Part shown: piece after piece, positions 6,021 through 22,814 of the stretch
Position numbering within the stretch: position 1 is the first letter of the stretch
Layout: each line of letters opens with the position of its first letter
Origin: an uncultured Prochlorococcus sp.
Lineage (GTDB): Bacteria; Cyanobacteriota; Cyanobacteriia; PCC-6307; Cyanobiaceae
Direction: 5' to 3'
Length of the DNA stretch: 64,000 nt
Assembly (NCBI GenBank): GCA_902573565.1
Contig: CACGKI010000001.1
Span: 2,038 to 66,037 of the forward strand
Notes under the pieces: generated by a model
The model's database searches: none
The model's input: the letters and a program-made list of their open reading frames with translations, nothing else
What the model was told of the DNA's origin: nothing
Made by a program: the position numbers and the translations under genes

Positions 6021-8429
6021 GTGGTAAGAATAGTTGCAGACGCCACAGGTAGAGTTATTCTTCCAGTACGGGTTATTTACATACGTTTTTTTATCGTGAC
6101 TATTGCACCAAATAAAGCTTCTTCAGAGAACAATTCCAATAATCTTAAAAAAGATGATTTTCCAAAGACTGCGCCAGCTGCTTACCCAGTTTTTTTCAGA
6201 TCTTATAGTAGAAAAACTTCATCTGGCAAAAGGGAGAACTGGAGCGAAGTAGGCGAAAGGAATTTATCGGGATTAAAAGAATTAGGAAAACTTTCTGAAG
6301 AAGAATTAATCCTAATGAGAGAGATGCAAAGTAACCAAAAAGCTCAACCTTCAGGAAGATGGTTATGGATAGGCGGAACCCCTTGGATTAATAAGAACCA
6401 AAATTTCTCAGGAGCATACAACTGTACCTCAACAAACTTAATTGATTGGGAAGCCTTCGCATTAATGATGGACTTAGCAATGATGGGATGTGGGACAGGT
6501 GCTATAATTGAGCCTCATTTTATAAATAATCTACCTACGGTAATTAACAAAATAAACATTAAATCAGTCAGTGAAGTTGGAATAACTTCTAAAGATCAAA
6601 GAGAAGAAAAGTCATCATTAGAAATTAAAGGAAAAGATCTTCATATCAAAGTTGGAGATAGCAGAAGAGGATGGGTAGATAGCTATAAATATCTTCTTGA
6701 GGCATCAAGTAACGAGAGTCTTGAAAGAGAAATTGATGTTTATATTGATCTGGAAGATATTAGGCCTGCTGGAGAATCATTAAAAGGTTTTGGTGGTATG
6801 GCAAATCCTATCAAATTGAAAGATCTTTACTCTAGAGTCGCATCACTTCTTGGAAAGGCAATTGGTAGAAAATTAAGTACAGTAGAGTGTTGTTTATTAA
6901 TTGATGAAGCTGCAGTAACCATAGTTGCTGGGAATATAAGAAGAAGTGCTGGAATGAGACAATTTGCTTCAGATGATAAGGAAGCCGCATCAGCAAAAGA
7001 AAATTTATGGAGTCAAGATGAGAATGGTAATTGGAGAATAGATCCTGAAAAAGATGCCCTCAGAATGGCCAATCATACTAGGGTTTACCATACAAAACCC
7101 ACTTACCAAACTGTTTTGGATGCAGTAACAAAACAATTCCATTCAGGTGAGGGAGCCATTCAATTTGCACCAGAAGCAATCGCAAGGTCAAATGCAGATA
7201 TTCTCAAAGATGATGAATTGAGAAAGGAATTTATTGAAATCTACTCAGAACAAGGCAAGGATGAAGCGAGAAATTGGATAAATAGTAGTTATGGTCCTTT
7301 TTCAGAAGAAGAGTTAGACCACAGGATGAGCCGATATGGACTTAACCCTTGTGGGGAGATCTTGGGAAATGATTTCCATTGCAATTTGGCTGAAGTTCAT
7401 TTAAATCAGATTGATCCAGGAAATTTTGAAGAGCAAAAAAAAGCTTTTAAAGCAGCCGCTCTTTCTGTAGCATGCTTACTAAATCATGAATTTGAAGTTG
7501 AGCGTTACAGAAAAAGTAGGGAATATGATCCTATCGTAGGAGTAAGTTTCACTGGATTATTTGATTTTTGTGTCCATGCCTTTGGGACGCCATGGTTGAA
7601 ATGGTGGGAAGCAGGAAGGCCAAATAGCGAAGAAGGGAAGGCCTTCAAAGAAAAGGAAGCTAGATTCTTAGATTCTTGGAGAAAAATAGTAAAAGAAACT
7701 GTATGGGAATATTGTGATAAGCATAATCTAAGGAGACCAAATAGATGCACAACAGTTCAGCCAGCTGGAACTAAAAGTCTTCTTACTGGAGCAGCTCCAG
7801 GTTGGCATCCTCCAAAGGCTCAAAGATTCATAAGAAGAATAACTTTCAGGAAAAATGACCCAATCGCTTTAGCTTGCATGGATTATGGTTACTCAGTTGT
7901 TCCATCTCAATCTGATAAAGATGAAAATGGTTGCTTGCTCGATAATCCATTTGATCCAAGATGTACAGAATGGTTAGTTGAAATCCCTACAGAAGTTAGT
8001 TGGGCAAATATAGAGGGTGCAGACCAAATAGACATCAATAATTTCTCAGCATTGGCCCAATTTGATTTTTACATGCAAGTGCAGAAATTTTACACAGAGC
8101 ATAATACCTCAGCAACTGTAGAATTTAGAGAAAATGAAATAGAGGATTTAGCTAAGGCTATACACAGTGCAATAGAAAATAATGAAGGATATATTTCAGC
8201 TGCATTACTAGCTAGATTTAGTGCCAACGCTACTTTCCCGAGGTTACCTTTTGAACCAATAAGTAAAGAGGAATACCTATCATTACAAAATAAAGTTATG
8301 GAAAGGAAAGTTAATAGCGATTTCTTTGACGCTCTTAATAAATATGACGTTGGAGAACTATCTGAAGCAGGACCAGCAGGTTGTGATTCAGATAAGTGTC
8401 TACTTCCTCTAGCTAAACCAAAAGATTAA
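6021..8429 (+). CDS. nrdJ: Class II (adenosylcobalamin-dependent) ribonucleotide reductase. True start probably GTG at 6096.
   Basis: Large RNR-like ORF with the single-chain class II architecture seen in Prochlorococcus. The first 25 codons (MVRIVADATGRVILPVRVIYIRFFI) look non-coding and overlap an inverted repeat. An in-frame GTG lies at 6096. Confidence 0.8.
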   Translation: MVRIVADATGRVILPVRVIYIRFFIVTIAPNKASSENNSNNLKKDDFPKTAPAAYPVFFRSYSRKTSSGKRENWSEVGERNLSGLKELGKLSEEELILMREMQSNQKAQPSGRWLWIGGTPWINKNQNFSGAYNCTSTNLIDWEAFALMMDLAMMGCGTGAIIEPHFINNLPTVINKINIKSVSEVGITSKDQREEKSSLEIKGKDLHIKVGDSRRGWVDSYKYLLEASSNESLEREIDVYIDLEDIRPAGESLKGFGGMANPIKLKDLYSRVASLLGKAIGRKLSTVECCLLIDEAAVTIVAGNIRRSAGMRQFASDDKEAASAKENLWSQDENGNWRIDPEKDALRMANHTRVYHTKPTYQTVLDAVTKQFHSGEGAIQFAPEAIARSNADILKDDELRKEFIEIYSEQGKDEARNWINSSYGPFSEEELDHRMSRYGLNPCGEILGNDFHCNLAEVHLNQIDPGNFEEQKKAFKAAALSVACLLNHEFEVERYRKSREYDPIVGVSFTGLFDFCVHAFGTPWLKWWEAGRPNSEEGKAFKEKEARFLDSWRKIVKETVWEYCDKHNLRRPNRCTTVQPAGTKSLLTGAAPGWHPPKAQRFIRRITFRKNDPIALACMDYGYSVVPSQSDKDENGCLLDNPFDPRCTEWLVEIPTEVSWANIEGADQIDINNFSALAQFDFYMQVQKFYTEHNTSATVEFRENEIEDLAKAIHSAIENNEGYISAALLARFSANATFPRLPFEPISKEEYLSLQNKVMERKVNSDFFDALNKYDVGELSEAGPAGCDSDKCLLPLAKPKD

Positions 8430-9097: not shown

Positions 9098-9293
9098 CTA
9101 AATATTTTTGACGAGGAGACTAATTACATTATTAAGATATTAAGTTTTTTGATTTAAAACCTAGACAAATAATTTACGGGAGTGTTAAGCTAAATTTGTA
9201 GCAACCGCTACCAAAACGTTCAACTTGCGTTTAGCAAGCCGCAAATCGACTTAAGCCATGGAACGGGGACTTAAGCGAAACCGGAGCTTAAAA

Positions 9294-9734: not shown

Positions 9735-10553
9735 TCACAAAATTTTCAAAATTATAAACTCATTTCCAAATAGCCATACGACTAATCCTCCTAGAGAAAT
9801 AAATGGAGCGAAGGGGATTACTTGTCTAAACTTCAAAATATTTGTAGATAAACCTACTAGACAATATATTGCAGCAAATATATAAGAAAGACCCACAGCA
9901 AGTAATGTTCCAATTGGACCAAGCCAAATAGCAAGCATTGCGACTAATTTTGTATCTCCTTTCCCAATAGCATCTTTTTTGAATATATATTTAGCAAAAT
10001 GTCTTAAAAATTCAAAAATTAAAAATGATATTACTGGTGTACTCAGACCTTTAATAATTAAAAAAAGATCTATAAATTTATCATTTAACATTTCGACAGT
10101 GATTAATCCTATCAATCCAGAAATAAATCCAAAATTTATTAAACCTTGAGGAATCCAAAAACAACTAATATCAATTAAAGATATACAAATCAAAAGAGAC
10201 AAAAACAACCAGCTAAAAAAAACTTGTAGAAATAAGTTTGAGTTAAAATTTTGAAAAGTGGGCGAGCTATTAACAAATAAAACAAACAAAATCCCAGTTA
10301 TAAATTCAACGAGAGGGTATCTAAATGATATTGAAGAGTTACAATTCTTACACTTACCCTTTTGAATAACCCAACTAATTAAAGGTATATTTTCTATCCA
10401 AGTTAATTGATTTTTACAATCAGGACAAAAACTTCTTGGTTTTACAATTGATAGATCATTCGGAAATCGAAAAACAACTACATTTAAAAAACTTCCTATA
10501 CAAATACCAATTACAAACGCTGAAAAATAATTAATCACTATCATTATTTTCAA
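9735..10553 (-). CDS. pilD: Type IV prepilin peptidase / N-methyltransferase (peptidase A24)
   Basis: 272 aa, polytopic. Zinc-type CPDC...CKNC pairs in the first cytoplasmic loop, with the conserved IENIPLISW and FRYPLVE blocks. Confidence 0.85.
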   Translation of the reverse strand: MKIMIVINYFSAFVIGICIGSFLNVVVFRFPNDLSIVKPRSFCPDCKNQLTWIENIPLISWVIQKGKCKNCNSSISFRYPLVEFITGILFVLFVNSSPTFQNFNSNLFLQVFFSWLFLSLLICISLIDISCFWIPQGLINFGFISGLIGLITVEMLNDKFIDLFLIIKGLSTPVISFLIFEFLRHFAKYIFKKDAIGKGDTKLVAMLAIWLGPIGTLLAVGLSYIFAAIYCLVGLSTNILKFRQVIPFAPFISLGGLVVWLFGNEFIILKIL

Positions 10554-10707: not shown

Positions 10708-11184
10708 GTGACTTTATTAAAAGCATATTTAAACAGCCCTAGAGCAAAAAGAGCTCTTTCTAAAAAACCAGGGGAGGAGGGATTCTCTCTTATTGAATTG
10801 GTTGTTGTTGTAGCAGTTCTAGCAATACTATCAGCGATTGCTATTCCTTCTTTTACAAGTATAAGTCTAAAAGCACAAGCATCAGCAGCTGCGAACACTG
10901 TTGCTACAGTAGCTAAGGAATGTGCGGTGAAATACGCCAATGGAGAAACAACACCAACAAGACCTATTGTTACTCCTGATGGTTATGGTGCAATTACAGT
11001 AACTGCTCCAACAGGCACAGGGGCAACTGTCAGATGTACAAGGACTGGTCTCATCACAGCTGCTGCAGAAGGAGATGGATCTACAGGTAACCCAAGAACT
11101 TTGCCAGATTTTGTTTATAACGTTACTACTGGCGATAAAACATGCACAACTGGCTATCAAGGTTGTCCTTCAGGTAGATGGTAA
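10708..11184 (+). CDS. pilA: Type IV pilin (major pilin candidate), GTG start, ~25-aa leader
   Basis: Class III signal G|FSLIELVVVVAVLAILSAIAIPSF with Glu at +5. T/G/A/P-rich C-terminal domain with 4 Cys. No other start codon lies between GTG 10708 and the cleavage site. Confidence 0.8.
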   Translation: MTLLKAYLNSPRAKRALSKKPGEEGFSLIELVVVVAVLAILSAIAIPSFTSISLKAQASAAANTVATVAKECAVKYANGETTPTRPIVTPDGYGAITVTAPTGTGATVRCTRTGLITAAAEGDGSTGNPRTLPDFVYNVTTGDKTCTTGYQGCPSGRW

Positions 11185-11247: not shown

Positions 11248-11745
11248 ATGAATAAAAGGATTTATAGAAACTTAATTTACTTATCTTTTTCATCCATATT
11301 ATTGTTTGGTTGCTCCCAAAACAATAATATGGATATAGATTTGTCTAATTTACCCAAACCTAAGCTAAATCAAATAATTGATTTAACAGAGGAAGAGCCA
11401 GTCAAAGAAGATAACCAAACATATATTAAAGATTTAGTGCCTTTCGAGCCTAAAGAAAGATTACTTTCAAAATACAAATTTGGGAAAAAAGATCCTTTCT
11501 CAGAAAATGAAAATGAATTAAATAAATTAGGATCAGATTTTAAATTAAAAGGTTTTCTTGAGACAGATACTAAAAAATATGTAATTGTAGATTATCTAGG
11601 AAATAATGGCTCAATTTCCGAAGATTCTATTGGAGGTTTAAATACCGAATTATTACCTAATGGAGCAAAGGTAATTTTTATAGATGCTGAAGAAATGAAA
11701 TTAAAAATTAAATATGAAAACGAAGATTATATCTTTGAACTATAA
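11248..11745 (+). CDS. Lipoprotein, possible PilP-like pilus alignment component
   Basis: Lipobox LLFGC. C-terminal segment KLKGFLETDTKKYVIVDYLGNNGSI...GAKVIFIDAEEMKLKI resembles the PilP beta-domain pattern. Sits between two pilin genes. Confidence 0.4.
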   Translation: MNKRIYRNLIYLSFSSILLFGCSQNNNMDIDLSNLPKPKLNQIIDLTEEEPVKEDNQTYIKDLVPFEPKERLLSKYKFGKKDPFSENENELNKLGSDFKLKGFLETDTKKYVIVDYLGNNGSISEDSIGGLNTELLPNGAKVIFIDAEEMKLKIKYENEDYIFEL

Positions 11746-11835
11746 AAATTTTAATTAAGGTTAGTTTTAAAATTACTTAGTTGTTTAAGTTTTAATTAAA
11801 TATTATAATAAATACTCTAATCCATTGGATATCTC

Positions 11836-12981
11836 ATGAAAATATCCAAAACAAACAAAAGTGAAAATCATAATCAAGGCTTTACTCTCATAGAGCTAGT
11901 TGTTGTTGTTCTAGGGTTAGCCGCTTTAGCAGGTTTAACCCTCCCTAGTTTTCTTAATTCAATAAAACTAAATAGAATTGAAGAAGCCAAGGCATTAATG
12001 AATAGTTTCGCTACAGATTGTTTAGGAAAATATAGGATATCAACTGATCCAACAGATTTTATTGAAAATGCTACTCCAGATGAATTAGATAATATAAAAT
12101 TGTCAACATTACAATATCAAATCGATGGAGATAAAAATAAGTGTTCTCATGTAGCAATCAAACCTTTAAATGAAGATGAAAAAGATCTTTTTGCTTTTGA
12201 CTTCAGAATGTCAAGTGAGGGGAAAATATTAAAAACTGCTCAACCTTCCAGTAATCCAGACTTTCTTAACTCATGTAGAGGCTGGGCAGGAAAAAATTGC
12301 GGACTATCGGATGCCCAAAAAGCAGAATTTGCAAGACTAGCTGCATTAGCAAAAGCTAAAGCAGAATGTATTTCAGCTTATACCTCATGGTTAAATGATA
12401 AAAATAGTGGCGAATTTAGAACTTGGGATAACAGTAATGAGAATTGTACTAGACAGGTTTTTGCTTTTGAAGGAGTTCCAGTAAATTCACTAGAAGCAGT
12501 GGATCAAGCTTTAAAATCTAAGTATGGAAGAGCATGTTTGGATTGGAGAGAATCAAAAAAAAATACTATCAGTCCAAACGGCAACCCAGAAACTAAAAAT
12601 CCAGAATGTGGTGGCGTGCAGTATTGGTTCCATTCTGGAAATATATTTACAACCAAAGCAATGTGGGATGCTCACGACAATCTTCTAAAACAACAAGCAT
12701 GCGTTAAAAACAGAACAGATGCTCTTAACGGAGGTGTAAAAGGCAAATATACATATACACCTCAAGGGCCGCCACCTTGCGGCCAGGTTGTATGGTTATG
12801 TAATGGAGAAGAATATGGGTCACTTGAGGCGTATAAATCTACTTCTTGTGGTGCTCCGCCACCACCTCCAAAAGATCCTCCTGTTCCACCACACTGTGTA
12901 AATTTTGAACCACTGGCATTTTTATGCGGTGGCTATGTGCCTGGAAAGTCTAGATTTAGTCCAGCCTGTGAGTGTAGATAA
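11836..12981 (+). CDS. Large pilin-like protein (381 aa) with Cys-rich, poly-Pro C-terminus
   Basis: Prepilin signal MKISKTNKSENHNQG|FTLIELVVVVLGLAALAGL. Many Cys. C-terminal GAPPPPPKDPPVPPHC...CECR. Its stop abuts the pilB ATG. Confidence 0.7.
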   Translation: MKISKTNKSENHNQGFTLIELVVVVLGLAALAGLTLPSFLNSIKLNRIEEAKALMNSFATDCLGKYRISTDPTDFIENATPDELDNIKLSTLQYQIDGDKNKCSHVAIKPLNEDEKDLFAFDFRMSSEGKILKTAQPSSNPDFLNSCRGWAGKNCGLSDAQKAEFARLAALAKAKAECISAYTSWLNDKNSGEFRTWDNSNENCTRQVFAFEGVPVNSLEAVDQALKSKYGRACLDWRESKKNTISPNGNPETKNPECGGVQYWFHSGNIFTTKAMWDAHDNLLKQQACVKNRTDALNGGVKGKYTYTPQGPPPCGQVVWLCNGEEYGSLEAYKSTSCGAPPPPPKDPPVPPHCVNFEPLAFLCGGYVPGKSRFSPACECR

Positions 12982-14637
12982 ATGTCAAATAATCAATATA
13001 CAGCTACAAGTGTACGAAAGTTAGTAGATAAGTTTTTCTCTCTTCAGTGGTGCAGAGATAATTTAGTAGTTCCTCTATATGAGGAGACATCTTTGCCTAT
13101 GAGCCAGGGGATAATAAAAATAGCTATCGCAAACTATTCATATCTAGGAACTATTGCTTCCCCAATCAAGGAGAGATTAAGTCAATCTGGCTTTAAATGT
13201 GAATTTGTAGAAAGATCTCAAGAAGAAATACAAGAGATCCTAGATTTAGCATCTGAAGAAAGATTTATAAGTGGAGAATCTATAGAGATATCACAATTTG
13301 ACGAGGATGCAGTTCTAGAGGCCATAAAAGAAACCTCAGATAATTCGGATGATAGTTTTTCATTTGAATTTGATGATGATGATGAAACTGCAAATATTGA
13401 AGAAGATAGTTTAGATTTGGCATCCGAAATGATGGAAAGTAAAATTCAAAAGGCAGCAGGAATGGTATTAATCAATTCTAGAAAAAATGATGTATCTGAT
13501 ATTCATATCGAACCGAGAGAAGATGGTTACAAGATAAGGGTAAGGAAGGATGGAGTAATGCAAAAATTCATGTCAATGTCTAAAAAACCAGGAATTCAAT
13601 TAGTTGCATGTTTAAAAAATATGGCCCAGATGGATATTGCTGAAAGAAGGGCCAGTCAAGATGGGAAAATACTTAGAAAATTTGAAGGTAATAGATTTGA
13701 ATTCCGTTGTTCAACTGTTCCAGGAAAACATGGCGAAAAAATGGTTCTAAGAATCTTAAATAGTGATGCATCGGCACTAAATTTGGATACTTTAATTCAT
13801 ATTGAAAGTGTTAGAAAAGATTTTAGAAAAATAATGAATGCCACAAATGGGATAGTGATCGTTTCTGGTCCTACTGGCTCTGGTAAATCAACAACGCTAG
13901 CCGCAGCTTTAAGAGAAAAGGATACAGGAGATTCAAATATAGTAACTGCCGAAGACCCTATTGAATATGATATGGGAGGAGATATAAATCAAGTTCAGGT
14001 AAATAGGGCGAAAGGACAAACATTCGCTATGATTTTGAGAACTTTTTTAAGACAAGATCCAGACGTTATTCTTATTGGTGAAACTAGAGACCCTGAAACA
14101 GCAGAGTCATCTATGGATGCCGCTGAAACTGGTCATTTAGTTTTTACTACTCTTCATGCAAATTCATCAACTAGTTCTTTAACAAGATTATTAGACATGG
14201 AAGTCCCAAAATATAAGTTAAATGCAAGTGTTAGAGGTGTCTTGGCCCAAAGATTGCTTAGAAAAATTTGTACAGGATGCGGAATAAAAAGGCCTATTTC
14301 TGAAAATGAAGCTATTGAATTTGGTATCCCAAAGAATACTCCAATAATGTACGCAAATTCTTTAACGGCAGAAGAAAAATTAAACCGAAAAAAGGAAAAT
14401 ACTCTTTGTCCAAAATGTCAAGGCGCAGGATATAAAGGAAGAGTTGGGGCATATGAACTTCTTCTTATCGATAGAAACATACAAAATGCTATTTCCAAAG
14501 GATTAACCGATAGAGAAATTGAAAATTTAGCAGTTAACGAAAATTCAATGCTCACTCTTACTCAATACGGTGTAGAGTTAGTTAAAGATAATTTAACAAC
14601 AATTTCAGAAGTAATTAGGGTATGCAAATCGGATTAA
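12982..14637 (+). CDS. pilB: Type IV pilus assembly (extension) ATPase, GspE/PilB family
   Basis: 551 aa. Walker A GPTGSGKST, tetracysteine CTGC...CPKC, Asp/His boxes, N-terminal T2SSE_N-like domain. Confidence 0.9.
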   Translation: MSNNQYTATSVRKLVDKFFSLQWCRDNLVVPLYEETSLPMSQGIIKIAIANYSYLGTIASPIKERLSQSGFKCEFVERSQEEIQEILDLASEERFISGESIEISQFDEDAVLEAIKETSDNSDDSFSFEFDDDDETANIEEDSLDLASEMMESKIQKAAGMVLINSRKNDVSDIHIEPREDGYKIRVRKDGVMQKFMSMSKKPGIQLVACLKNMAQMDIAERRASQDGKILRKFEGNRFEFRCSTVPGKHGEKMVLRILNSDASALNLDTLIHIESVRKDFRKIMNATNGIVIVSGPTGSGKSTTLAAALREKDTGDSNIVTAEDPIEYDMGGDINQVQVNRAKGQTFAMILRTFLRQDPDVILIGETRDPETAESSMDAAETGHLVFTTLHANSSTSSLTRLLDMEVPKYKLNASVRGVLAQRLLRKICTGCGIKRPISENEAIEFGIPKNTPIMYANSLTAEEKLNRKKENTLCPKCQGAGYKGRVGAYELLLIDRNIQNAISKGLTDREIENLAVNENSMLTLTQYGVELVKDNLTTISEVIRVCKSD

Positions 14638-14647
14638 ATTTATTCAT

Positions 14648-15691
14648 ATGTCAATAGCTCGGGAGATAGTAGGTTTTGCAATAGAGGCGGGTTCCTCAGA
14701 TATCCATCTTGAAGAGAACTCTCCTATTGCAGTCAGGGTGAATTCTGAAATAAAGGTGAGTCCACAGAAATTAGACTCAGAAGATATGGATGAATTATTA
14801 CTAGAATTGCTAGGTAAAGAAAAATTAAATGAATACAATAGCACTGGAGATTTAGATAGCTCAATAGGCTTAGATGGACTATCAAGATTAAGAATTAATG
14901 CATACGTAGCAAATGAAAAAAGATGTCTTACTCTTAGACTACTCCCAAATGAACTTCCTAAATGGCAAGATTTAGGTCTACCTGATTCTTTCATTAAACT
15001 ATCAAAGCTTCATAGAGGTTTAGTGTTATGCACTGGTCCCACTGGATCAGGGAAGTCAACCACATTAGCAGCATTTATTAATTGCATGCTTGAGACACAA
15101 CAGAGGCACATATTAACTATTGAAGATCCAATAGAGTTCATTTTTAAACATACAGAAAATTCAATAATCCATCAAAGAGAAGTTAAAAGAGATACAAACT
15201 CATTTTCAGTTGCGTTAAGAGCCGCTCTTAGAGAAGATCCAGATGTAATTTATATTGGGGAAATGCGAGACTTAGAAACAATACAGTTAGCAATTACAGC
15301 TGCAGAAACTGGGCATCTAGTATTAGGAACACTGCATACTTCTTCAGCTGCAAAAACAGTTGAAAGAATAGTTGATGTATTTCCTGCTGATCAGCAAGAA
15401 CAGGCAAGATTGCAAGTTTCTACATCATTAGCTGGTATTATGTCTCAAACTTTATGTAAAAACACAAAAGGGAAAAGATCTCTTGCTTTCGAGTTAATGG
15501 TAAATACTCCTGCGATAGGTAACTTAATAAGAGAAAAAAAAGTTAGCGAAATTTATTCACAACTACAAACAGGCAGTCAATACGGGATGAACACTCTAGA
15601 ACAATGTCTAAATTCTCTTTATGCAGATGGTTTAATCTCTCAAGAAGAAGCATTAGGTAGAGCTTCAAACCCTAAAGCTATAAAATTATAA
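14648..15691 (+). CDS. pilT: Type IV pilus retraction ATPase
   Basis: 347 aa. Walker A GPTGSGKST. PilT-type AIGNLIREKK motif (compare AIRNLIRE). No N-terminal extension. Confidence 0.88.
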   Translation: MSIAREIVGFAIEAGSSDIHLEENSPIAVRVNSEIKVSPQKLDSEDMDELLLELLGKEKLNEYNSTGDLDSSIGLDGLSRLRINAYVANEKRCLTLRLLPNELPKWQDLGLPDSFIKLSKLHRGLVLCTGPTGSGKSTTLAAFINCMLETQQRHILTIEDPIEFIFKHTENSIIHQREVKRDTNSFSVALRAALREDPDVIYIGEMRDLETIQLAITAAETGHLVLGTLHTSSAAKTVERIVDVFPADQQEQARLQVSTSLAGIMSQTLCKNTKGKRSLAFELMVNTPAIGNLIREKKVSEIYSQLQTGSQYGMNTLEQCLNSLYADGLISQEEALGRASNPKAIKL

Positions 15692-15693
15692 AA

Positions 15694-16860
15694 ATGGTTG
15701 AATATGGTAATACTACCCAAGTAAGTAGCAAGGCAAAAAGAAATCCTCCACCAATTGTTTTTGGCATACCATTCGGGGAGATATCTCATTTAGACTATGA
15801 ACCTGATACAAAATTAAAAGTACCTCAAAATGATTTATTAGTCTTTTTTAGGCAAATGTCGGTAATGCTTAAAAGTGGAGTTGCACTCTCACAGGCATTA
15901 GAGCTATTAGCTGAAAATATGACTAATAAAAAGTTTGGTTCTAATATCCTTGAAGTATCAAAAAAGCTAGGAAGTGGAGAAGAGCTATCATCCAGCTTGG
16001 GGGCATTCCCCAGAATATTTAGTCCAATAATGATAGGACTTATTGAAGCTGGGGAAGCTGGAGGTATTTTATCTCAAGTTCTAGAAAGATTAGCCGCATT
16101 AATCGAGGCCAGAAGTAAGATAAAAGGGCAAATAACTGGAGCACTAATATATCCAGTAGCAATACTTGTTTTAGCCGTAAGCGTAAGTCTTGGCCTTTTA
16201 ATATTTATAGTTCCAAAGTTTGAGACAATGTTTGCAGATATGGGGGCTGAACTTCCTGGTATAACAAATTTCATGCTGACATTGTCCAGAATAGTAACCA
16301 CTTGGTCTTTTGCAATTATTGCTCCCTTAACATTATTCATTGGTTTTTATTTTTTTAATATTAGTTATGCAACTCCTACTGGGAGGAAATTTTTTGATAA
16401 CTTGATTTTAAAAATTCCCTTATTTGGAGATTTAATTTTAAAGTCTGAAATTGCTTCGCTATCTGATACACTAAGCACTTTAATTAATTCAGGAATTTCT
16501 ATAGTAGAAGCAATTGAGAGGTGTATAAATGCCTCTAATAACGAAATAATAAGGTTATCTCTGAGAAGATCAATTTCCTTAATCACTCAGGGGCAAGAAT
16601 TAAGCACATCTCTAGAAACTGCAAAAATAATGCCAAAGTTGCTTATATCTATGATTAGGATTGGAGAAGAAACTGGGGCTTTATCATTTATGGTAGAAAA
16701 TATTGCTAATTTTTATAAAAGGGAAGTGGAAGAATCAGTAACTGTTTTAACAAAAGCTATGGAACCTGCAGTTATTTTTGTTGTTGCTGGAATAGTAGGG
16801 ACAATAGTTGTCTCACTTTATTTACCAATGTTTAGTCTCATACAAAATATGGGGGCCTAA
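15694..16860 (+). CDS. pilC: Type IV pilus platform protein (GspF family)
   Basis: 388 aa, two T2SSF-like repeats with three TM segments. Follows pilT by 2 nt. Confidence 0.88.
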   Translation: MVEYGNTTQVSSKAKRNPPPIVFGIPFGEISHLDYEPDTKLKVPQNDLLVFFRQMSVMLKSGVALSQALELLAENMTNKKFGSNILEVSKKLGSGEELSSSLGAFPRIFSPIMIGLIEAGEAGGILSQVLERLAALIEARSKIKGQITGALIYPVAILVLAVSVSLGLLIFIVPKFETMFADMGAELPGITNFMLTLSRIVTTWSFAIIAPLTLFIGFYFFNISYATPTGRKFFDNLILKIPLFGDLILKSEIASLSDTLSTLINSGISIVEAIERCINASNNEIIRLSLRRSISLITQGQELSTSLETAKIMPKLLISMIRIGEETGALSFMVENIANFYKREVEESVTVLTKAMEPAVIFVVAGIVGTIVVSLYLPMFSLIQNMGA

Positions 16861-18314
16861 TCATTTTCTAGAAATGATTTATCCATCTTGAATGATTCCT
16901 TTTTCTTCTCTTCGCTTTTAATTTTAGTTTCTGCTTTTTCCTTTATTTTTAAATTTGGTAATGGGGGTAATTCCTTTTTCTTCTCTTCGTTTTTAATTTT
17001 AGTTTCTGCTTTTTCCTTTACTTTTGTATTTTCTTCATTTAATTTATTTAAAGAATCCATTAGATTAGCTACGGTTTGATTACTAATATCTTCAGTTTCT
17101 TCCTGAGTAGCTTCGCTATTATCATCTTGAAAAATAAATTTTTTCACTAGAAGCCTATCATTTAAAGTTTCGTCTTCTAAATTATTATTCTTTATTAAAC
17201 TCAAACCTAATCCTATAAGTCTTGACATGGAAAATTGATTAATTTCCTCTGGATTATATGAGAATTCTTTAAGAGAACTAGTATTTATTGGAGATATCAA
17301 AGCAACATCCATTTTTAAATTTTTGCCAATTAACTCTACAAGATTCTTATGTTGACTATTTCTACCAGATAAAAATATTTTCCCCTTTTTTTTCAGATTA
17401 TTTTGATTTACGAAATTTGTAAATGCTTGATTTATTTCTCTTATTAATACTTTTAAATCAAGTTGCGATAATGGATGGTAATTATCTGATTTTCTTTTAA
17501 TATTAGACTTATCATTTGTTTCAGCTTTTGTAGTATTCATTTTTTTCATCTCTTCTATTGAAGGAAATCTCCTAATAGAAGCTAATCTTTTTATTAATAT
17601 CGGTCCAGATCTATCAAGAATTACAAATTGAGTGAATTCATCCAGCAAATCTACTGAAATAATTAATTCATTTTCTTCTAATTTATTTATTTCTTGTTTT
17701 AGTAAATTAGCAATACACATATGGCTCATTTGCAGGGAACATATTTCTAAATTTGCATTTTTAATCGAATCAATAATGATCTCTACATTTTTTTTGGGGA
17801 TAGATGTTAAAAAATACTTGTTAAATTTCTTTTTTTTAGATTCCTTTTTAGGGAGTTTTGTTAGGTTTATCTCAAAATCTGAGTTCTCCAAAGATATAGG
17901 TATTTGAATCCCAGAATTAGGGTTCTCTAAAAAGGAAGAAGAATCCTCTTCATTTATATTCTCTGGAATTTCAATCAATCTGGTGTAACAAGTATCTGAT
18001 GGTAAAGATACTGCAACCTTACAGGTATTAATTTTATTTTCATTAATAATCTGTTTTAGAAAAAGACCAAAGTTTTCAGAATCAGAAGGTATTGATTTTT
18101 CTAGTGCTTCCCTTGGTAACTTTTGGGTTAAAACTTTTTTTATATAAAGTTTATTTTTTTGGGATTTGGCTACTCCAATATTTATAAAATCTGTACCTAT
18201 TTCCAATAGGATAATTTTACTACTTATTTTTTTAAAAACTTCTAAAAAAAGTTCTTTAATATCTTCAATTTGATATTCACTTATTTTTTTTTTAGGTGTT
18301 TTGGCTGAGTTCAT
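16857..18314 (-). CDS. pilM: PilM-like actin-fold pilus assembly protein with K/E-rich C-terminal extension
   Basis: N-terminal ~350 aa shows a PilM/FtsA-like layout (LLEIGTDFINIGVA...). The last ~110 aa are low-complexity, with a duplicated KEKAETKIKxEEKKKE. Last gene of the pilQ operon. Confidence 0.55.
   Translation of the reverse strand: MNSAKTPKKKISEYQIEDIKELFLEVFKKISSKIILLEIGTDFINIGVAKSQKNKLYIKKVLTQKLPREALEKSIPSDSENFGLFLKQIINENKINTCKVAVSLPSDTCYTRLIEIPENINEEDSSSFLENPNSGIQIPISLENSDFEINLTKLPKKESKKKKFNKYFLTSIPKKNVEIIIDSIKNANLEICSLQMSHMCIANLLKQEINKLEENELIISVDLLDEFTQFVILDRSGPILIKRLASIRRFPSIEEMKKMNTTKAETNDKSNIKRKSDNYHPLSQLDLKVLIREINQAFTNFVNQNNLKKKGKIFLSGRNSQHKNLVELIGKNLKMDVALISPINTSSLKEFSYNPEEINQFSMSRLIGLGLSLIKNNNLEDETLNDRLLVKKFIFQDDNSEATQEETEDISNQTVANLMDSLNKLNEENTKVKEKAETKIKNEEKKKELPPLPNLKIKEKAETKIKSEEKKKESFKMDKSFLEND
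16896..17020. repeat. Two 50-bp direct repeat copies (16896-16945 and 16971-17020), 75-bp period, 1 mismatch
   Basis: ttcctttttcttctcttcg[c/t]ttttaattttagtttctgctttttccttta read twice. Encodes the duplicated K/E-rich peptide in the pilM-like tail. Confidence 0.85.
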
Positions 18315-18835
18315 AATTTACAAAAAGGTTTAGGCCTACAAAATATTCTCCTAACTGGCGTTGCATTTACTGAAACACCATTTTCTGGTTTGGAATACAG
18401 GATGTAAATGCCCGGTTTACCCTTACCATTAGATAATTCTGAATAATTACTCTCTGATAGTGAAGTTGGTTTAATACATACTCTATACGATTTTGGTATC
18501 GCTTCTGTATCAATTGATGGAATTCCCCATTCTAAAGAAGGTAAAGCAGTGCACTGTAGATTCAAAATAAATTCTTTACTGATACCAGGCTCAGATAATA
18601 TTTCTATAATCGAATCAAAAGTATTATTTATTTGAGAGTGATCGTTAAGCATATCTTTTAATTCTTTATTTGAAGAAATATATTCATCTTTAGCTTCTTC
18701 ATTTAAAGGTTGAAAAAATCTTGAAGTATATTCAACCACCATAACTGTTATACCTGTAAATGCCGTTAACATTAACAATGCTAATACTAATTCTGGAAGA
18801 GTCATTCCTAAATTATAATTTTTTTTATTTTTCAT
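18311..18835 (-). CDS. Minor pilin / pseudopilin
   Basis: Prepilin signal MKNKKNYNLG|MTLPELVLALLMLTAF (Gly -1, Glu +5). 174 aa. 4-nt overlap with pilM. Confidence 0.65.
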   Translation of the reverse strand: MKNKKNYNLGMTLPELVLALLMLTAFTGITVMVVEYTSRFFQPLNEEAKDEYISSNKELKDMLNDHSQINNTFDSIIEILSEPGISKEFILNLQCTALPSLEWGIPSIDTEAIPKSYRVCIKPTSLSESNYSELSNGKGKPGIYILYSKPENGVSVNATPVRRIFCRPKPFCKL

Positions 18836-18838
18836 AAC

Positions 18839-19048
18839 TTACTCATTGAATTTTAATGATTTAATATCTTGATTTATATTTTCAATATCGGCTAAGTTAT
18901 ATCCTGCATCAATTAATATTTGTCTTTCTTCTTCTATAAGGGAATATTTCCCAACTTTAATTAATGCTTTATCAGTGATATTAATTGCTAATAGCATTGC
19001 CACAGTTACTCCAGACATTATGACAGAACCAACCAACGCAGAAATCAT
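18839..19048 (-). CDS. Small pilin-like hydrophobic N-terminus protein (no leader)
   Basis: 69 aa beginning MISALVGSVIMSGVTVAMLLAI. ATGA overlap with the upstream ORF. No G/E prepilin motif. Confidence 0.4.
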   Translation of the reverse strand: MISALVGSVIMSGVTVAMLLAINITDKALIKVGKYSLIEEERQILIDAGYNLADIENINQDIKSLKFNE

Positions 19049-19476
19049 TTATTTACCTCATAAGGACAAAAAGATTCATTCTTCAAGTAACAAGAAAATA
19101 AGCTATAAGTGCCAAAACCAGATTTCTTTATTAAAACTCTATGATTAAGATCTTTGTTTACTAATACGCAACTATTAACAAATAAAGTATTTCTTGAAGG
19201 TGTTTGAGTCCCAGTTGTTGAAAATATTTCTCCGTCTTCATAGAGTGCATTATCCATGTTTTCCTTTATTTTTGAACATATCTCCAAATCAGGTCCTGTA
19301 TAATTATTTATAATATTCAAAATCCTCCTATCATAACTTGGCAGAGCTGAACTGTAGTATACGTCTCTTTTAAATGTACTTAATAGCATAAGATTATTTA
19401 CATTATTTCCTATTTGCATCATTGCTGAAATCCCAGAAATCATTGCAATACCTAAGCCAACGTACAAAAATGTCAT
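19045..19476 (-). CDS. Membrane-anchored protein, pilin-like N-terminus without leader
   Basis: 143 aa beginning MTFLYVGLGIAMISGISAMMQI, with 4 Cys in the C-terminal part. Operon position between pilO-like and the minor pilin. Confidence 0.4.
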   Translation of the reverse strand: MTFLYVGLGIAMISGISAMMQIGNNVNNLMLLSTFKRDVYYSSALPSYDRRILNIINNYTGPDLEICSKIKENMDNALYEDGEIFSTTGTQTPSRNTLFVNSCVLVNKDLNHRVLIKKSGFGTYSLFSCYLKNESFCPYEVNK

Positions 19477-19512
19477 AATTAAATTAATTTAATAATCAAA
19501 TGAAAATCTGAG

Positions 19513-20175
19513 TCAATTCTTGCCATAAAATGTTGTCCTAAGTTTCACTTCCAACTTCTCATTTGGATTATTATCCTCTTTATTAAGATTCTGGTTTGAT
19601 AAACCTAAATTTATCTCATTTACTAGTACTACACTCTCCTGAAATTCTAGTTCTCTTAAAAAAGAAAGCAGATCGGTAAAGTTTGATTTTAAAGTTAACT
19701 CTATTATATATTTTTTAGAACCTTCAACTAAAAGCGGATCGATTATTAATGGTTCATTATTTGAGGATTCATCTAAAGTTTTTCTTTTATCATTTGCAAC
19801 AAAGCTCATAATTTTTGAAGGAACTATAGATACAAATTCAATATTATTTGTTTTACCTAAATCTCCTAATTTAGAAAGTAAAGTTTCTAAGTCTGATTGA
19901 CCAGTAACTAGCTCAATTATTTTTAATTTTTCTTTATTTAATTTTTCAAACTTTTGATTAATTGTTTTGTATTGTAATTTCAAGTTGTCCAAGTCATTCT
20001 TTTTTTTGATTAAATCCTTTAATTCAAAATTTACTTTATTCGATTTAATATATTGAGGCATTACAAAAAAAGTTACTATAAAAATTGATATTCCTGCCGA
20101 AATAAAAACTGGGATAAAAGATGCAGCTTTTTCTGGTGTTAAATAGTTTTTTCTTGGATTAATAGAATTAGTCAT
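19513..20175 (-). CDS. pilO: PilO-like pilus alignment protein
   Basis: 220 aa with one N-terminal TM (FIPVFISAGISIFIVTFFVM), a coiled-coil and a C-terminal alpha/beta-like region. Position after pilN-like. Confidence 0.5.
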   Translation of the reverse strand: MTNSINPRKNYLTPEKAASFIPVFISAGISIFIVTFFVMPQYIKSNKVNFELKDLIKKKNDLDNLKLQYKTINQKFEKLNKEKLKIIELVTGQSDLETLLSKLGDLGKTNNIEFVSIVPSKIMSFVANDKRKTLDESSNNEPLIIDPLLVEGSKKYIIELTLKSNFTDLLSFLRELEFQESVVLVNEINLGLSNQNLNKEDNNPNEKLEVKLRTTFYGKN

Positions 20176-20184
20176 CTTATAAAT

Positions 20185-20874
20185 CTAATCAATATTTTCT
20201 TCAATATTTTTTAAAATAGTTAATCTATTAAAAAGTCCAAATGATCCAAGCTTAGTTAAATAATTCTTATTAATCTTTTTATAGTTTGTTGCAACTTTCG
20301 TATTTATTACAGCTAAAAAACTTTTATCTTCTGAACCTGAATCTGAAACTTTTATTTCTTTTAGATCAATATCATCAAATTCAACCAGTTCAGAATTATT
20401 TAAGTTTAATAAGAAAGAATTTAAAGATCCTAAGTATTCTTTATTAGAAAGCTTGGCTTTAATAACAAGTTTATTACCTAAAGAGGCCAGCTCTAAAAGT
20501 TGAATATCTTTTGGAATTATTAAAGCAATTTCCTTAAATAAGGCTGAACTAGAACTTATATTTATTATTGAATTCTTTAGTTCATTGTTGAATTTAGAAA
20601 TTTCTTTTAATTGTTTTGATTCTAGATCTAAATTTTTTTCAAGAAGATCATACTCATCAGTGAAAGCTTTCAAATTATTTTTTTGATTTTCTAAAAACTT
20701 AATTCTGAAGATAAAAGGGATTCCAAGTGTTAGTGATATTGACATTAAAATCAAACCATAAAAAATACCTCTTTTAATATATTTCTTAGTATCAATAAAA
20801 TAAGGCTCATTTAAATCATTACCTCCCCTCCTCTTTCGAAGTAAATCAATTTGTTTAAAATTACTTTTAACCAT
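20185..20874 (-). CDS. pilN: PilN-like pilus alignment protein
   Basis: 229 aa. N-terminal QIDLLRKRR resembles the PilN INLLP motif. Single TM, then coiled-coil. Confidence 0.55.
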   Translation of the reverse strand: MVKSNFKQIDLLRKRRGGNDLNEPYFIDTKKYIKRGIFYGLILMSISLTLGIPFIFRIKFLENQKNNLKAFTDEYDLLEKNLDLESKQLKEISKFNNELKNSIINISSSSALFKEIALIIPKDIQLLELASLGNKLVIKAKLSNKEYLGSLNSFLLNLNNSELVEFDDIDLKEIKVSDSGSEDKSFLAVINTKVATNYKKINKNYLTKLGSFGLFNRLTILKNIEENID

Positions 20875-20900
20875 TTAATAATTTAATTTTTTATAAAAAG

Positions 20901-22814
20901 TCATTTATCTTTAAGAATTCTTGGTGTAACAAGAATGATTAACTCACTTTTTCTTTTCTGAGTTGAATTATTTCTAAACAAGTTTCCAAGAAGTGGTATA
21001 TCTCCCAGAATAGGCACTTTAGCAGTTGATACGGAGTCTGAGTCTTGAAGTACTCCAGTAAGAATTAACGTATCCCCATTTTTTACCCTTATAGAACCCG
21101 TATCTAATTTCCTTACACTTAAAGTGTTTTGTATCCCACAGCCTGAAATCTCAACTGATCTTGTAACCGAAGAAATAGCAGGACTTAATGCAAAACTAAC
21201 AAATCCATTATCATCTATCTTTTCAACCTTTGCTCCAAATGTAATTCCAGCAGTTCCTTCCTGCGCAGTACATGTAACTACACCTTCATCAGCAGTTTGA
21301 GTAAATCCTGTAACCACGGTTTCACCAACTTTTATAAAACCCTCATTTTTGAAAGGCCTACCAATTGATGCGGAATTTAATCCGTCTCCTACTGAAGCAG
21401 CCCCAGAAGTAAGAGCATTTGGATTCTCTCCAAGAATTAAAGTAGGAGAAGCTAAGACCTTTGCATTTTCATTGGTTATTTTAGCCTCTAGCCAATTTAA
21501 AAAATTACCTTCAGTTAAACCTCCAGCAATAATATTTGGAACATTGGCGGTTTCAGGCGGATTGGCTGGAGCAATATTTGCTGTTACTAAACCAAGACCT
21601 CCTCTATTAATAATTCTTGTATCACCAGTTCTTAGTTCAAAAACGTTATTTTTTATATCGGATTTTGTTAGTGAAACATCAATTATTTTTATAGTTAAGG
21701 CCACTTGTCTATGACGAACATCAAGGGACCTTATATACTTTTCAGCAGTCTTCATAAGATCTTTTGAACCTATTAATGTTATAGTTTGCAACCTTAAATC
21801 AGCAGTCCCAACTAATCCAAATAAAGGGCCTTTACCAATTCCATACGAATTAATATCTTCATCCTTAAATTCCTTTTTATTCATTAAACTATCTCCAACT
21901 TCTTGTCCATTAATTGAACCACTAATTAACATTACTTTTGAAATTTGGGCTCCTAATGTTGAAAGGTAATCAGCAACTGAAGCAGCATTAACTTGATTTA
22001 ATCTAAAAGTCTTGGAGAATTTTGGCATTAAACTTTTGTTTAGAATATTTTTTCCGATAAAAATAATATTATTTTCTAAAATTGCCTGAAAATCAGCAGA
22101 AAGCAAAATACTGTTGAAAACATCAGAAATATCAACATTTTGAAAATTAGCTGTAATCTTAGCTTTGTTAGAACTTTCCTCTTTTGAATTCTTATCATCA
22201 ATAATTATTATTCCATAGTTACCCAATTTACCAATTAAATGCAAAGTCTCTAAAGCATCCGCATCTTTTAGATTAAGTGAAATTTTCTGCTCCGATAATC
22301 TTACATACCCTCTTGATGGAACTTTAAATTCGCTAGAAGATATGACACTTCTTGAAGGCAAAGGTAATTTATTAATATTTTCATGGTTAACTTTATTCCC
22401 ATTCTTTAAGTTCTTTTTATTTTTATATTTCTTATTTGATTTTTTTCTAATATTAATTGATCTATTATTTTGAATATTATTATTTTTATCTACTTCATTA
22501 AAGTTGCCATTTTCATTAGGAATATTTTCTTGTTCATTCTTCAAATTATTAATATTATTGAGATCAAAAGTTTCTTCTACAAATTTCTCTAGCCTTTCTG
22601 CATCTCGGCTAAGAAAATTATTTTCACTATTATCTTTATTTGATATTAATGTCTTAAATTTTCTATCGAATTTTGAATGGAAGTTACTTTTTTCTAAGTT
22701 ACCTGTTCCTGTTTTTCTATTTTTGAAAGAATAAGAACTTATTATCAATTGATTAAAAATCAACAAACAAATTAAAAGTATTTTTCTTTTTTTTATTCTT
22801 GAAAAATTTCCCAT
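20901..22814 (-). CDS. pilQ: Type IV pilus secretin
   Basis: 637 aa. C-terminal secretin signature VPILGDIPLLGNLFRN...ELIILVTPRIL, an N0/STN-like segment, and an N/K-rich low-complexity N-terminal region after a signal peptide. Confidence 0.85.
   Translation of the reverse strand: MGNFSRIKKRKILLICLLIFNQLIISSYSFKNRKTGTGNLEKSNFHSKFDRKFKTLISNKDNSENNFLSRDAERLEKFVEETFDLNNINNLKNEQENIPNENGNFNEVDKNNNIQNNRSINIRKKSNKKYKNKKNLKNGNKVNHENINKLPLPSRSVISSSEFKVPSRGYVRLSEQKISLNLKDADALETLHLIGKLGNYGIIIIDDKNSKEESSNKAKITANFQNVDISDVFNSILLSADFQAILENNIIFIGKNILNKSLMPKFSKTFRLNQVNAASVADYLSTLGAQISKVMLISGSINGQEVGDSLMNKKEFKDEDINSYGIGKGPLFGLVGTADLRLQTITLIGSKDLMKTAEKYIRSLDVRHRQVALTIKIIDVSLTKSDIKNNVFELRTGDTRIINRGGLGLVTANIAPANPPETANVPNIIAGGLTEGNFLNWLEAKITNENAKVLASPTLILGENPNALTSGAASVGDGLNSASIGRPFKNEGFIKVGETVVTGFTQTADEGVVTCTAQEGTAGITFGAKVEKIDDNGFVSFALSPAISSVTRSVEISGCGIQNTLSVRKLDTGSIRVKNGDTLILTGVLQDSDSVSTAKVPILGDIPLLGNLFRNNSTQKRKSELIILVTPRILKDK

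Follow-up and report, generated by a model that had tools for sequence, protein, structure and literature searches.

A large pilin encoded next to pilB

This work concerns a 64,000-nt stretch of contig CACGKI010000001.1 from an uncultured Prochlorococcus sp., hereafter called the window, and more specifically the gene at positions 11836–12981 of its forward strand. This open reading frame (ORF) starts with ATG and codes for a 381-residue protein that we call the large pilin. The window has ~30% G+C, and its genes have their closest relatives in single-cell genomes of Prochlorococcus as well as in strains MIT 9201 and GP2. An earlier note on this DNA had described the product as a pilin-like protein with a prepilin signal, more than twice the size of the neighbouring PilA and with a Cys-rich, polyproline C-terminus, and our analyses bear out this description. 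The N-terminus, MKISKTNKSENHNQG|FTLIELVVVVLGLAALAGLTLPSF, i.e. MKISKTNKSENHNQG|FTLIELVVVV, is a class III signal peptide, with a short hydrophilic leader that ends with Gly and precedes a hydrophobic stretch of ~20 residues. Gly occupies position −1, Phe +1, Glu +5 (E5) and Pro +22 (P22). The leader, residues 1–15 (11836–11880, + strand), is likely to be cleaved after Gly15 by the prepilin peptidase PilD. The protein is 2.4 times longer than the product of the neighbouring pilA ORF (158 residues). It contains 16 Cys and 26 Pro residues, and its C-terminal end, ...CGAPPPPPKDPPVPPHCVNFEPLAFLCGGYVPGKSRFSPACECR, is composed of a polyproline segment and a 4-Cys tail. The stop codon TAA (12979–12981) is immediately followed by the ATG of pilB at 12982, with 0 nt between them.

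General pilin signatures come close to recognizing the protein. The Pfam N_methyl model scores 18.5 bits, slightly under its cutoff of 21.2, and TIGR02532 scores 16.2 against 16.3 bits. The GspG, PilA and PpdD models match the N-terminus weakly, and the likeness to GspG is confined to residues 14–68, with 23.7 bits against a cutoff of 88.85. The GspH/FimT/FimU models (TIGR01708 gspH) do not match the large pilin, although TIGR01708 matches PilA. In an alignment of 101 homologues, G15, F16, T17 and E20 are at least 90% conserved, and Glu20, which corresponds to E5, is invariant.

Pilin module and additional conserved body

An AlphaFold2 model built with the 101-sequence alignment has a mean pLDDT of 86 (~90 from residue 50 on) and a pTM of 0.52. 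Residues 16–140 (11881–12255, + strand) form a predicted pilin module with an alpha1 helix, an alpha-beta loop and a four-stranded sheet. The helical segments H18–33 and H38–68 make up one long N-terminal helix broken at residues 34–37, at Pro37, which is P22 of the mature protein, and the antiparallel beta-sheet on which this helix lies spans E94–136. The pilin-like N-terminal helix, the lack of which would have spoken against the earlier note, is thus present in the model (H18–68). The best Foldseek match in the PDB is the full-length PAK pilin 1oqw (probability 0.96, target-normalised TM 0.48, E 0.039), with other pilins next, whereas PDB sequence matches cover residues 8–55 only. Over residues 14–90 the large pilin is identical to its cognate PilA at 32 of 79 positions. 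C62 and C103 of this module are invariant and were never lost in 102 distant relatives.

Beyond the pilin fold, residues 141–381 have no match in Pfam, NCBIfam or PDB-sequence searches. Their larger part, residues 141–338 (12256–12849, + strand), is an additional conserved body. It begins with a short helix and a C147–C155 loop, followed by three helix-plus-beta-hairpin units, H159–187/E192–216, H219–241/E263–271 and H274–299/E303–327. This body is modelled with a pLDDT of ~90 and its column entropy is 0.4–1.6. Foldseek searches against the PDB and a viral structure library returned nothing significant for it. It thus represents, as modelled, a confidently predicted fold without a solved relative.

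The conserved Cys residues of the body can be listed by unit as 178/204, 234/258, 289/315 and 322/338. Among the 102 distant relatives, joint loss was seen 14 times for C147 and C155 and three times for C178 and C204. Based on this co-loss, which is the sole source of the disulfide map, sequential pairing, with each helix stapled to the next hairpin, appears to be the simplest reading. Units 2 and 3 are related by a weak internal repeat (residues 250–295 versus 305–342, hhalign E 1.7e-4). A three-fold repeat was considered and rejected, as unit 1 has no profile similarity to units 2 and 3.

A conserved family of marine picocyanobacteria

In a 90%-clustered database, 276 homologues of the large pilin were collected at E ≤1e-3. 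Among the matches listed (120), lengths range from 355 to 405 residues and identities from 59 to 100%, and nearly all have exactly 16 Cys residues. When 1.84 billion representatives of clusters at 50% identity were searched with a profile, 214 clusters were found at E <1e-10, 76 of them at E <1e-30, including longer members of 400–494 residues with 18–28 Cys. All members that can be placed taxonomically belong to marine picocyanobacteria. Named members come from Prochlorococcus CUG1434 and MIT 0601 and from Synechococcus sp. MIT S1220, where the NCBI name is 'FimT/FimU family'; another member is labelled 'pseudopilin PulG' by JGI. No cyanophage-encoded relatives were found among 50,697 phage records.

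The alignment of 117 homologues showed that residues 1–340 are well conserved, with a mean column entropy of 0.4–1.6 per 10-residue block. Each of the 16 Cys positions is conserved: 15 correspond to alignment columns with 98–100% Cys, and the sixteenth, in the indel-rich tail, is spread over neighbouring columns. For 57 unique DNA copies, the ratio of dN to dS (omega) of the body is ~0.2–0.25, with dS near saturation for most sequence pairs. The number of homologues, the low omega of the body and the 16 conserved Cys positions place the large pilin far beyond a chance ORF. This is a real and conserved, but uncharacterized, protein family.

The GP2 member, Pro_GP2_0653, has 386 residues and 18 Cys. 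GP2 belongs to HLII. A protein identical to Pro_GP2_0653 at 386 of 386 positions is encoded in a locus of 30.7% G+C (L012) in NZ_CP138931.1, a record titled Prochlorococcus marinus str. SS51. SS51 was described as an LLII strain of 36.4% G+C without listed pilus genes in a 2021 survey. The strain label of NZ_CP138931.1 looks doubtful, and because of its G+C content and of the identity with the GP2 protein we did not use this locus as evidence for an LLII member.

Stalk and hypervariable knob

The body is followed, after C338, by a low-complexity stalk, residues 339–353 (GAPPPPPKDPPVPPH; 12850–12894, + strand). Among the 117 homologues its length ranges from 12 to 39 residues (median 15), with 37% Pro overall, and in 15 of them the Pro residues are replaced by poly-K/E/D/G/Q runs. 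The protein ends with a knob of four Cys, residues 354–381 (12895–12981, + strand, including the stop codon that abuts pilB), of the form C-x9-C-x13-C-x-C. Across the homologues the knob has 21–32 residues and the framework C-x8-C-x(7-18)-C-x-C.

The knob is hypervariable. Its mean pairwise identity is 31%, against 71% for the body, and the knob-body correlation is only 0.34. In 19 pairs of proteins the bodies are >88% identical and the knobs <40%, often with different loop lengths; conversely, 5 pairs have bodies <68% identical and knobs >60%. Single linkage at 50% identity separates 18 knob types among the 117 homologues, and these types are discordant with body relatedness. In the 57 unique DNA copies, omega is ~0.5–0.7 for the tail against ~0.2 for the body, dN of the tail is 3–6 times that of the body, and dS of the tail is also raised in close pairs. 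These sequence patterns fit a fast, partly recombinational diversification of the knob on a fixed Cys scaffold.

The pilus locus and its gene order

As judged from its gene content, the large pilin belongs to a compact, complete type IVa pilus locus, with pilD, pilB, pilC, pilP, pilQ and pilM/N/O-like genes gathered within 13 kb. The gene pilD (9735–10553, − strand) codes for the prepilin peptidase (A24_N_bact, 117 bits; Peptidase_A24, 42 bits). It is followed on the + strand by pilA (10708–11184; N_methyl, 29.7 bits), whose 158-residue product is a PilA1-type major pilin candidate that resembles PilA1 of MIT9201 and GP2 (PMC7994388, Suppl. Data 1). The start codon of pilA is GTG, and a long leader of 25 residues precedes G|FSLIE. 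PilA aligns between loci only in its N-terminal half (~80 residues), and its globular part thus appears to be far more variable than the body of the large pilin.

Between pilA and the large pilin gene, an ORF at 11248–11745 (+ strand) codes for a 165-residue lipoprotein with the lipobox LFGC. No family match was obtained by sequence. Its C-terminal beta-domain was modelled by AlphaFold2 with pLDDT >90, and the first ten PDB structures ranked by Foldseek are all PilP or GspC-HR (probabilities 0.94–1.00). As Foldseek E-values are weak (0.04) for both the pilin and the PilP matches, these two assignments rest on the consistency of the top matches and on the signal peptides. We had considered this lipoprotein as a dedicated partner or chaperone of the large pilin, an idea that we rejected upon its identification as PilP by fold, which makes it a part of the machine rather than a private partner. 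The gene pilP is kept at its position in the Prochlorococcus loci. The earlier note had placed the large pilin gene between pilA and pilB; it does abut pilB, but pilP separates it from pilA.

Downstream of the large pilin, pilB (12982–14637, + strand, 551 residues; T2SSE, 343 bits), pilT (14648–15691, +; TIGR01420 PilT, 426.9 bits for a cutoff of 319.1) and pilC (15694–16860, +; T2SSF, 177 bits) follow each other closely, the successive gaps from the large pilin gene to pilC being 0, 10 and 2 nt. The PilB and PilC models match strongly, below their equivalog cutoffs. The remainder of the locus is a block on the − strand (16857–22814) convergent with pilA–pilC. It comprises a pilM-like gene (16857–18314, 485 residues; PilM_2, 51 bits), a minor pilin gene identified in a prepilin motif scan (18311–18835, 174 residues, G|MTLPE), two small ORFs with hydrophobic N-termini that lack Glu5 (18839–19048, 69 residues; 19045–19476, 143 residues), pilO-like (19513–20175) and pilN-like (20185–20874) genes with weak PilO and PilN matches, and pilQ (20901–22814; Secretin, 101 bits). 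PilT above its cutoff, together with PilB, PilC, PilM, PilN, PilO, PilP and PilQ, identifies the system as type IVa. The gene order in the pilQ-to-pilM block is conserved in all loci.

The locus harbours only one clear additional prepilin, the 174-residue protein, two doubtful ones and no PilY1-like gene; a type IVa machine might thus operate here with a minimal set of minor pilins. The C-terminal extension of the PilM-like protein is long, rich in Lys and Glu, and contains a nearly duplicated segment (KVKEKAETKIKNEEKKKE/KIKEKAETKIKSEEKKKE); orthologues of this protein in related loci range from 485 to 877 residues.

The order pilD(−)–pilA–pilP–large pilin–pilB–pilT–pilC, followed by the convergent pilM(−)...pilQ block, is fixed in 13 reference-genome loci wherever the contig allows. 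We also performed the reverse analysis, starting from metagenomic PilB and restricted to pilB loci preceded by 1250 nt or more of sequence: in 47 of 51 such loci the large pilin gene is immediately upstream of pilB. The position upstream of pilB, on which the earlier note relied, is thus conserved. Of 58 junctions, 39 have 0 nt between the stop codon of the large pilin and the ATG of pilB, and at 57 this distance lies in the range of −8 to +4 nt. The four exceptions (L086, L087, L089 and L090) have pilB genes 71–79% identical to that of the window and unrelated genes upstream, including a 212-aa ORF that starts with MCGRFEL in L090 and a gene resembling those of DNA cytosine methyltransferases in L089. 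They may represent rearranged or decaying pilus loci.

Divergent loci of 42–52% G+C, including that of a Synechococcus genome, keep the order pilA–large pilin–pilB–pilT–pilC and a convergent pilM...pilN block. In these Synechococcus-type loci no gene lies between pilA and the large pilin gene, pilP being absent there, and pilQ is not found nearby. A DsbA/thioredoxin-type gene is present at the edge of three of five divergent loci (L015, 14134–14859; L017, 11094–11798; L019, 20800–21296), and the large pilins of these DsbA-flanked, Synechococcus-type loci have 20–23 Cys. DsbA was discarded as a linked factor, as its gene is absent from the window and from the Prochlorococcus loci.

Upstream of the pilus locus, an 802-aa ORF (6021–8429), which looks like a ribonucleotide reductase, is 92–98% identical between loci, compared with 30–95% for the adjacent pilus genes. 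From these comparisons, the pilus cluster appears to be a variable island whose place in the chromosome is fixed. A glutamine-II riboswitch aptamer (9214–9275, + strand; Rfam RF01704, 69.8 bits, E 8e-15) separates a small ORF from pilD.

A promoter-like element and an inverted repeat at the start codon

The 90-nt spacer between pilP and the large pilin gene carries a promoter-like element, TTGTTT (11781–11786) and TATAAT (11804–11809) separated by 17 nt (11781–11809, + strand). When the spacers of 9 loci are aligned, the TTG and TATAAT blocks are conserved, and almost every one of 62 unique 5' regions shows them. A generic promoter/terminator scan of the region did not list this element, and its result was no better than with shuffled sequences.

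An inverted repeat, TTGGATAT (11825–11832) and ATATCCAA (11842–11849), begins 15 nt beyond the TATAAT block and surrounds the ATG at 11836–11838 (11825–11849, + strand). As RNA it is predicted to fold, at −6.3 kcal/mol (z −2.6), into a hairpin of 8 bp whose 9-nt loop contains the start codon, and hairpin energies at other loci are −6.4 to −7.9 kcal/mol. The 64-kb window has a single copy of the repeat, as do the related loci, and the copy invariably lies at the start of the large pilin gene. It is present in ~45 of the 62 unique 5' regions, with loops of 7–12 nt. In the alignment, 96% of the cells pair, five of the eight pairs are invariant and one pair shows a double change. In L008 and L009 the arms differ yet are complementary, ATATTGG...CCAATAT around a TTG start.

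The repeat has left a mark on the coding sequence. Ser4 is encoded by TCC in 45 of 47 sequences, although TCC accounts for 6% of the Ser codons of the genome, and Ile3 by ATA in 41 of 42; as the sequences are related, nominal P values for these biases are overstated. Ile3 and Ser4 are invariant in an otherwise variable leader because the inverted repeat fixes the codons ATA TCC.

The inverted repeat may be either an RNA hairpin that presents the start codon or a palindromic DNA operator. The former is favoured, since the spacing varies and the arms of L008 and L009 differ while remaining complementary. An operator shared by the pilus genes was rejected, as the repeat is present only at the large pilin gene. 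We thus regard it as a candidate regulatory element specific to that gene. With an element of its own and the 0-, 10- and 2-nt packing of the genes that follow, the large pilin gene is likely to head a pilB–pilT–pilC unit separate from pilA.

Comparison with known pilins

Modular pilins, as defined by Raynaud et al. in 2021 (PMC8179133), are composed of a pilin module and an appended effector module expected to be exposed at the tip, such as the vWA module of PilB and the lectin module of PilC in Streptococcus sanguinis. The same study points out that many appended modules escape current signatures and that CofB, TcpB and ComZ share this limitation. The large pilin similarly combines a class III signal, a complete pilin module and extra modules at its C-terminal end, with residues 141–381 lying beyond the pilin fold and confidently modelled. 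It differs from the known modular pilins in that the appended part contains no recognizable functional domain, being composed of disulfide-stapled helix/hairpin units, a stalk and a hypervariable 4-Cys knob. It also differs from the modular pilins compared in belonging to a diderm cyanobacterium whose pilus machine is of type IVa. A modular pilin displayed at the tip would nevertheless be the best-fitting known category.

In type IVb systems the genes of the tip minor pilins directly follow those of the major pilins, tcpB after tcpA and cofB after cofA. The large pilin gene directly follows that of the major pilin in the Synechococcus-type loci, and like TcpB and CofB the protein has additional C-terminal domains and is tightly linked to assembly genes. 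The likeness extends to a plausible location at the tip, as the point of contact for phages or ligands. In contrast, there is no similarity of fold or sequence beyond the pilin helix, and the system is of type IVa with PilT. A beta-repeat and a beta-sandwich would be expected of a TcpB/CofB-like protein, whereas the extra part of the large pilin is alpha/beta with long helices. TcpB and CofB are not among the best 50 of 315 Foldseek PDB matches, none of which reaches E ≤0.001.

Hypervariable C-terminal segments bounded by a disulfide are also known in type IVa pilins. The D-region of the PAK pilin is such a segment, and it forms a receptor-binding site exposed at the tip. The knob resembles the D-region loop in being C-terminal, disulfide-bounded and hypervariable. 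It differs in having four Cys and in its distance from the pilin module, from which the stalk and ~200 conserved residues set it apart; in addition, its variants group into discrete types that are shuffled between lineages. Like GspK and PilX, the large pilin is bigger than the major subunit and probably part of a minor pilin set. Unlike GspK, which lacks Glu5 and has an extra domain inserted in its beta-sheet, it has Glu5 and C-terminal additions.

The earlier note had also suggested a comparison with the second pilin gene beside pilA in marine Synechococcus, but an equivalence of the two is not supported. Synechococcus WH7803 has PilA1–PilE pili (Aguilo-Ferretjans et al., PMC7994388). PilE (SynWH7803_1796), encoded near pilA1, is an ordinary pilin of 166 residues, compared with 381 for the large pilin, and the BLASTP match covers residues 15–55 only, at 41% identity. 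Supplementary Data 1 of that study lists Pro_GP2_0653 as a 'PilE homologue' with a BLAST E-value of 0.085, and its PilE column is blank for MIT 0601. The secreted protein SynWH7803_1797, encoded downstream of pilA1–pilE, was discarded as a relative, being by eye different, Cys-poor and of 72 kDa. The pilus genes of WH7803 and MIT9313 are dispersed; pilB adjoins grpE in WH7803, with no large-pilin member beside it, and likewise in MIT9313, which has this other pilus type. The location of the motor genes elsewhere in these two strains points to two types of pilus loci in marine picocyanobacteria. The large pilin is not mentioned in a 2025 review, in a 2025 preprint on phage binding to pili or in the results of full-text literature searches.

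Possible roles of the large pilin

The best reading of these analyses is that the large pilin represents a new family of modular minor pilins, in a compact type IVa system of Prochlorococcus and some marine Synechococcus. We consider it somewhat more probable than not (probability ~0.55) that it is a modular type IV pilin present in few copies, either at the distal end of the pilus, close to that end or scattered along the filament, with the knob as a contact surface. The tip adhesin or receptor function put forward in the earlier note is thus plausible. According to this proposal, PilD would cleave the leader after Gly15, and the mature protein would be docked in the filament of PilA through its PilA-like alpha1 helix. 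Its level of production would be low and machine-like. Its separation from pilA by pilP and by a promoter-like element of its own, together with its packing with the motor genes, argues for such expression rather than for that of PilA. The few copies would be carried at or near the distal end or sparsely along the filament, with the conserved body as a rigid spacer and the stalk holding out the knob. Eight disulfides would stabilize the exposed part in seawater. The knob might provide a strain-variable binding site for ligands or particles, or an exposed epitope. Its fast diversification and its exchange among lineages would probably be driven by phages or grazers that come into contact with pili; phages do bind the pili of marine Synechococcus (bioRxiv 10.1101/2025.09.20.677514).

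Several points weigh against this proposal. The extra body matches no known adhesin or lectin fold, and the pTM of the model makes the arrangement of the modules uncertain. Positive selection on the tail is not borne out, with omega below 1, and recombination or alignment noise may account for the raised dS. The promoter-like element and the hairpin were deduced from sequence, and published exoproteomes cover only strains with the other pilus type (WH7803 and MIT9313). Finally, with an alpha1 helix so similar to that of PilA, including E5 and P22, the large pilin may also be incorporated along the whole fibre.

A role as an assembly initiator, akin to TcpB and CofB, would account for part of the data. 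The large pilin would seed filaments together with small minor pilins and end up at the tip, its essential job being to start or regulate polymerization by PilB and PilC, with the variable knob as an incidental feature. The near-obligate placement and 0-nt coupling with pilB agree with such a function, as do the tcpA–tcpB- and cofA–cofB-like gene order in Synechococcus-type loci, a body conserved like a machine part and the scarcity of other minor pilin candidates in the locus. An initiator would leave unexplained, though, why a conserved Cys framework with hypervariable loops is borne on a stalk. The machine is moreover of type IVa with PilT, and similarity to the CofB or TcpB fold is missing among the best 50 Foldseek matches. 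We find this possibility rather doubtful.

The alternative raised in the earlier note, production in stoichiometric amounts with PilA, would make the large pilin a second major subunit that co-polymerizes in bulk with PilA into a thick or decorated filament. Its alpha1 helix is nearly that of PilA, and it is conserved in essentially every locus of the compact type. However, the stoichiometry had been deduced from gene position, and pilP and the promoter-bearing spacer intervene between pilA and a gene that is packed with those of low-copy motor proteins. The mature size of 366 residues, with elongated C-terminal modules, is far above that of the major pilins among the matched structures, the largest of which is the 208-residue PilA of Myxococcus, and the body is conserved whereas PilA, the true subunit of the shaft, is hypervariable. 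In published work, picocyanobacterial pili are thin (~6 nm), although they were measured on the other pilus type. Taken together, these features make a bulk subunit improbable. Least probable, in our view, is a secretion-type role, whether in a piston like that of type II secretion, as a periplasmic pseudopilin or through release of the knob as a free disulfide-rich peptide. The JGI name of one member and the weak GspG score of the N-terminus evoke such a role, and the hypervariable Cys-rich C-terminal peptide behind a conserved part gives the protein a superficial likeness to peptide precursors. The likeness to GspG is nevertheless limited and far under its cutoff, no protease or processing site is evident, PilT and PilM/N/O/P/Q define a type IVa pilus, and related PilA1-type pili have been seen on cells (PMC7994388).

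A bolder extension of the modular minor pilin proposal, which we offer as speculation and deem unlikely as it stands, is that the stalk and knob constitute a recognition cassette at the pilus tip. A disulfide-knotted peptide of 21–32 residues, with a fixed four-Cys framework and hypervariable loops, borne on a rigid spacer and swapped among lineages by recombination, would give each lineage a distinct surface identity. Such an identity could serve for self/non-self or partner recognition, for binding to particles or cells, or to decoy or escape phages that bind pili, and the hairpin at the start codon would gate the number of such tips.

Significance for marine picocyanobacteria

Pili are present in about a quarter of marine picocyanobacteria, with effects on sinking, grazing and encounters with phages (PMC7994388; bioRxiv 10.1101/2025.09.20.677514). 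Experimental work has so far dealt only with the pilus type of WH7803 and MIT9313, and the compact locus of high-light Prochlorococcus, the numerically dominant cells, is unstudied. The large pilin is the most distinctive component of that locus. If it is indeed a contact-making subunit, its hypervariable knob would be an obvious candidate for what the pili touch, or for what touches them, and pilus-mediated interactions in the open ocean would become testable questions. Should the stalk and knob prove to be a recognition cassette, the Earth's most abundant phototroph would have a strain-specific system of contact that has so far gone unrecognized.

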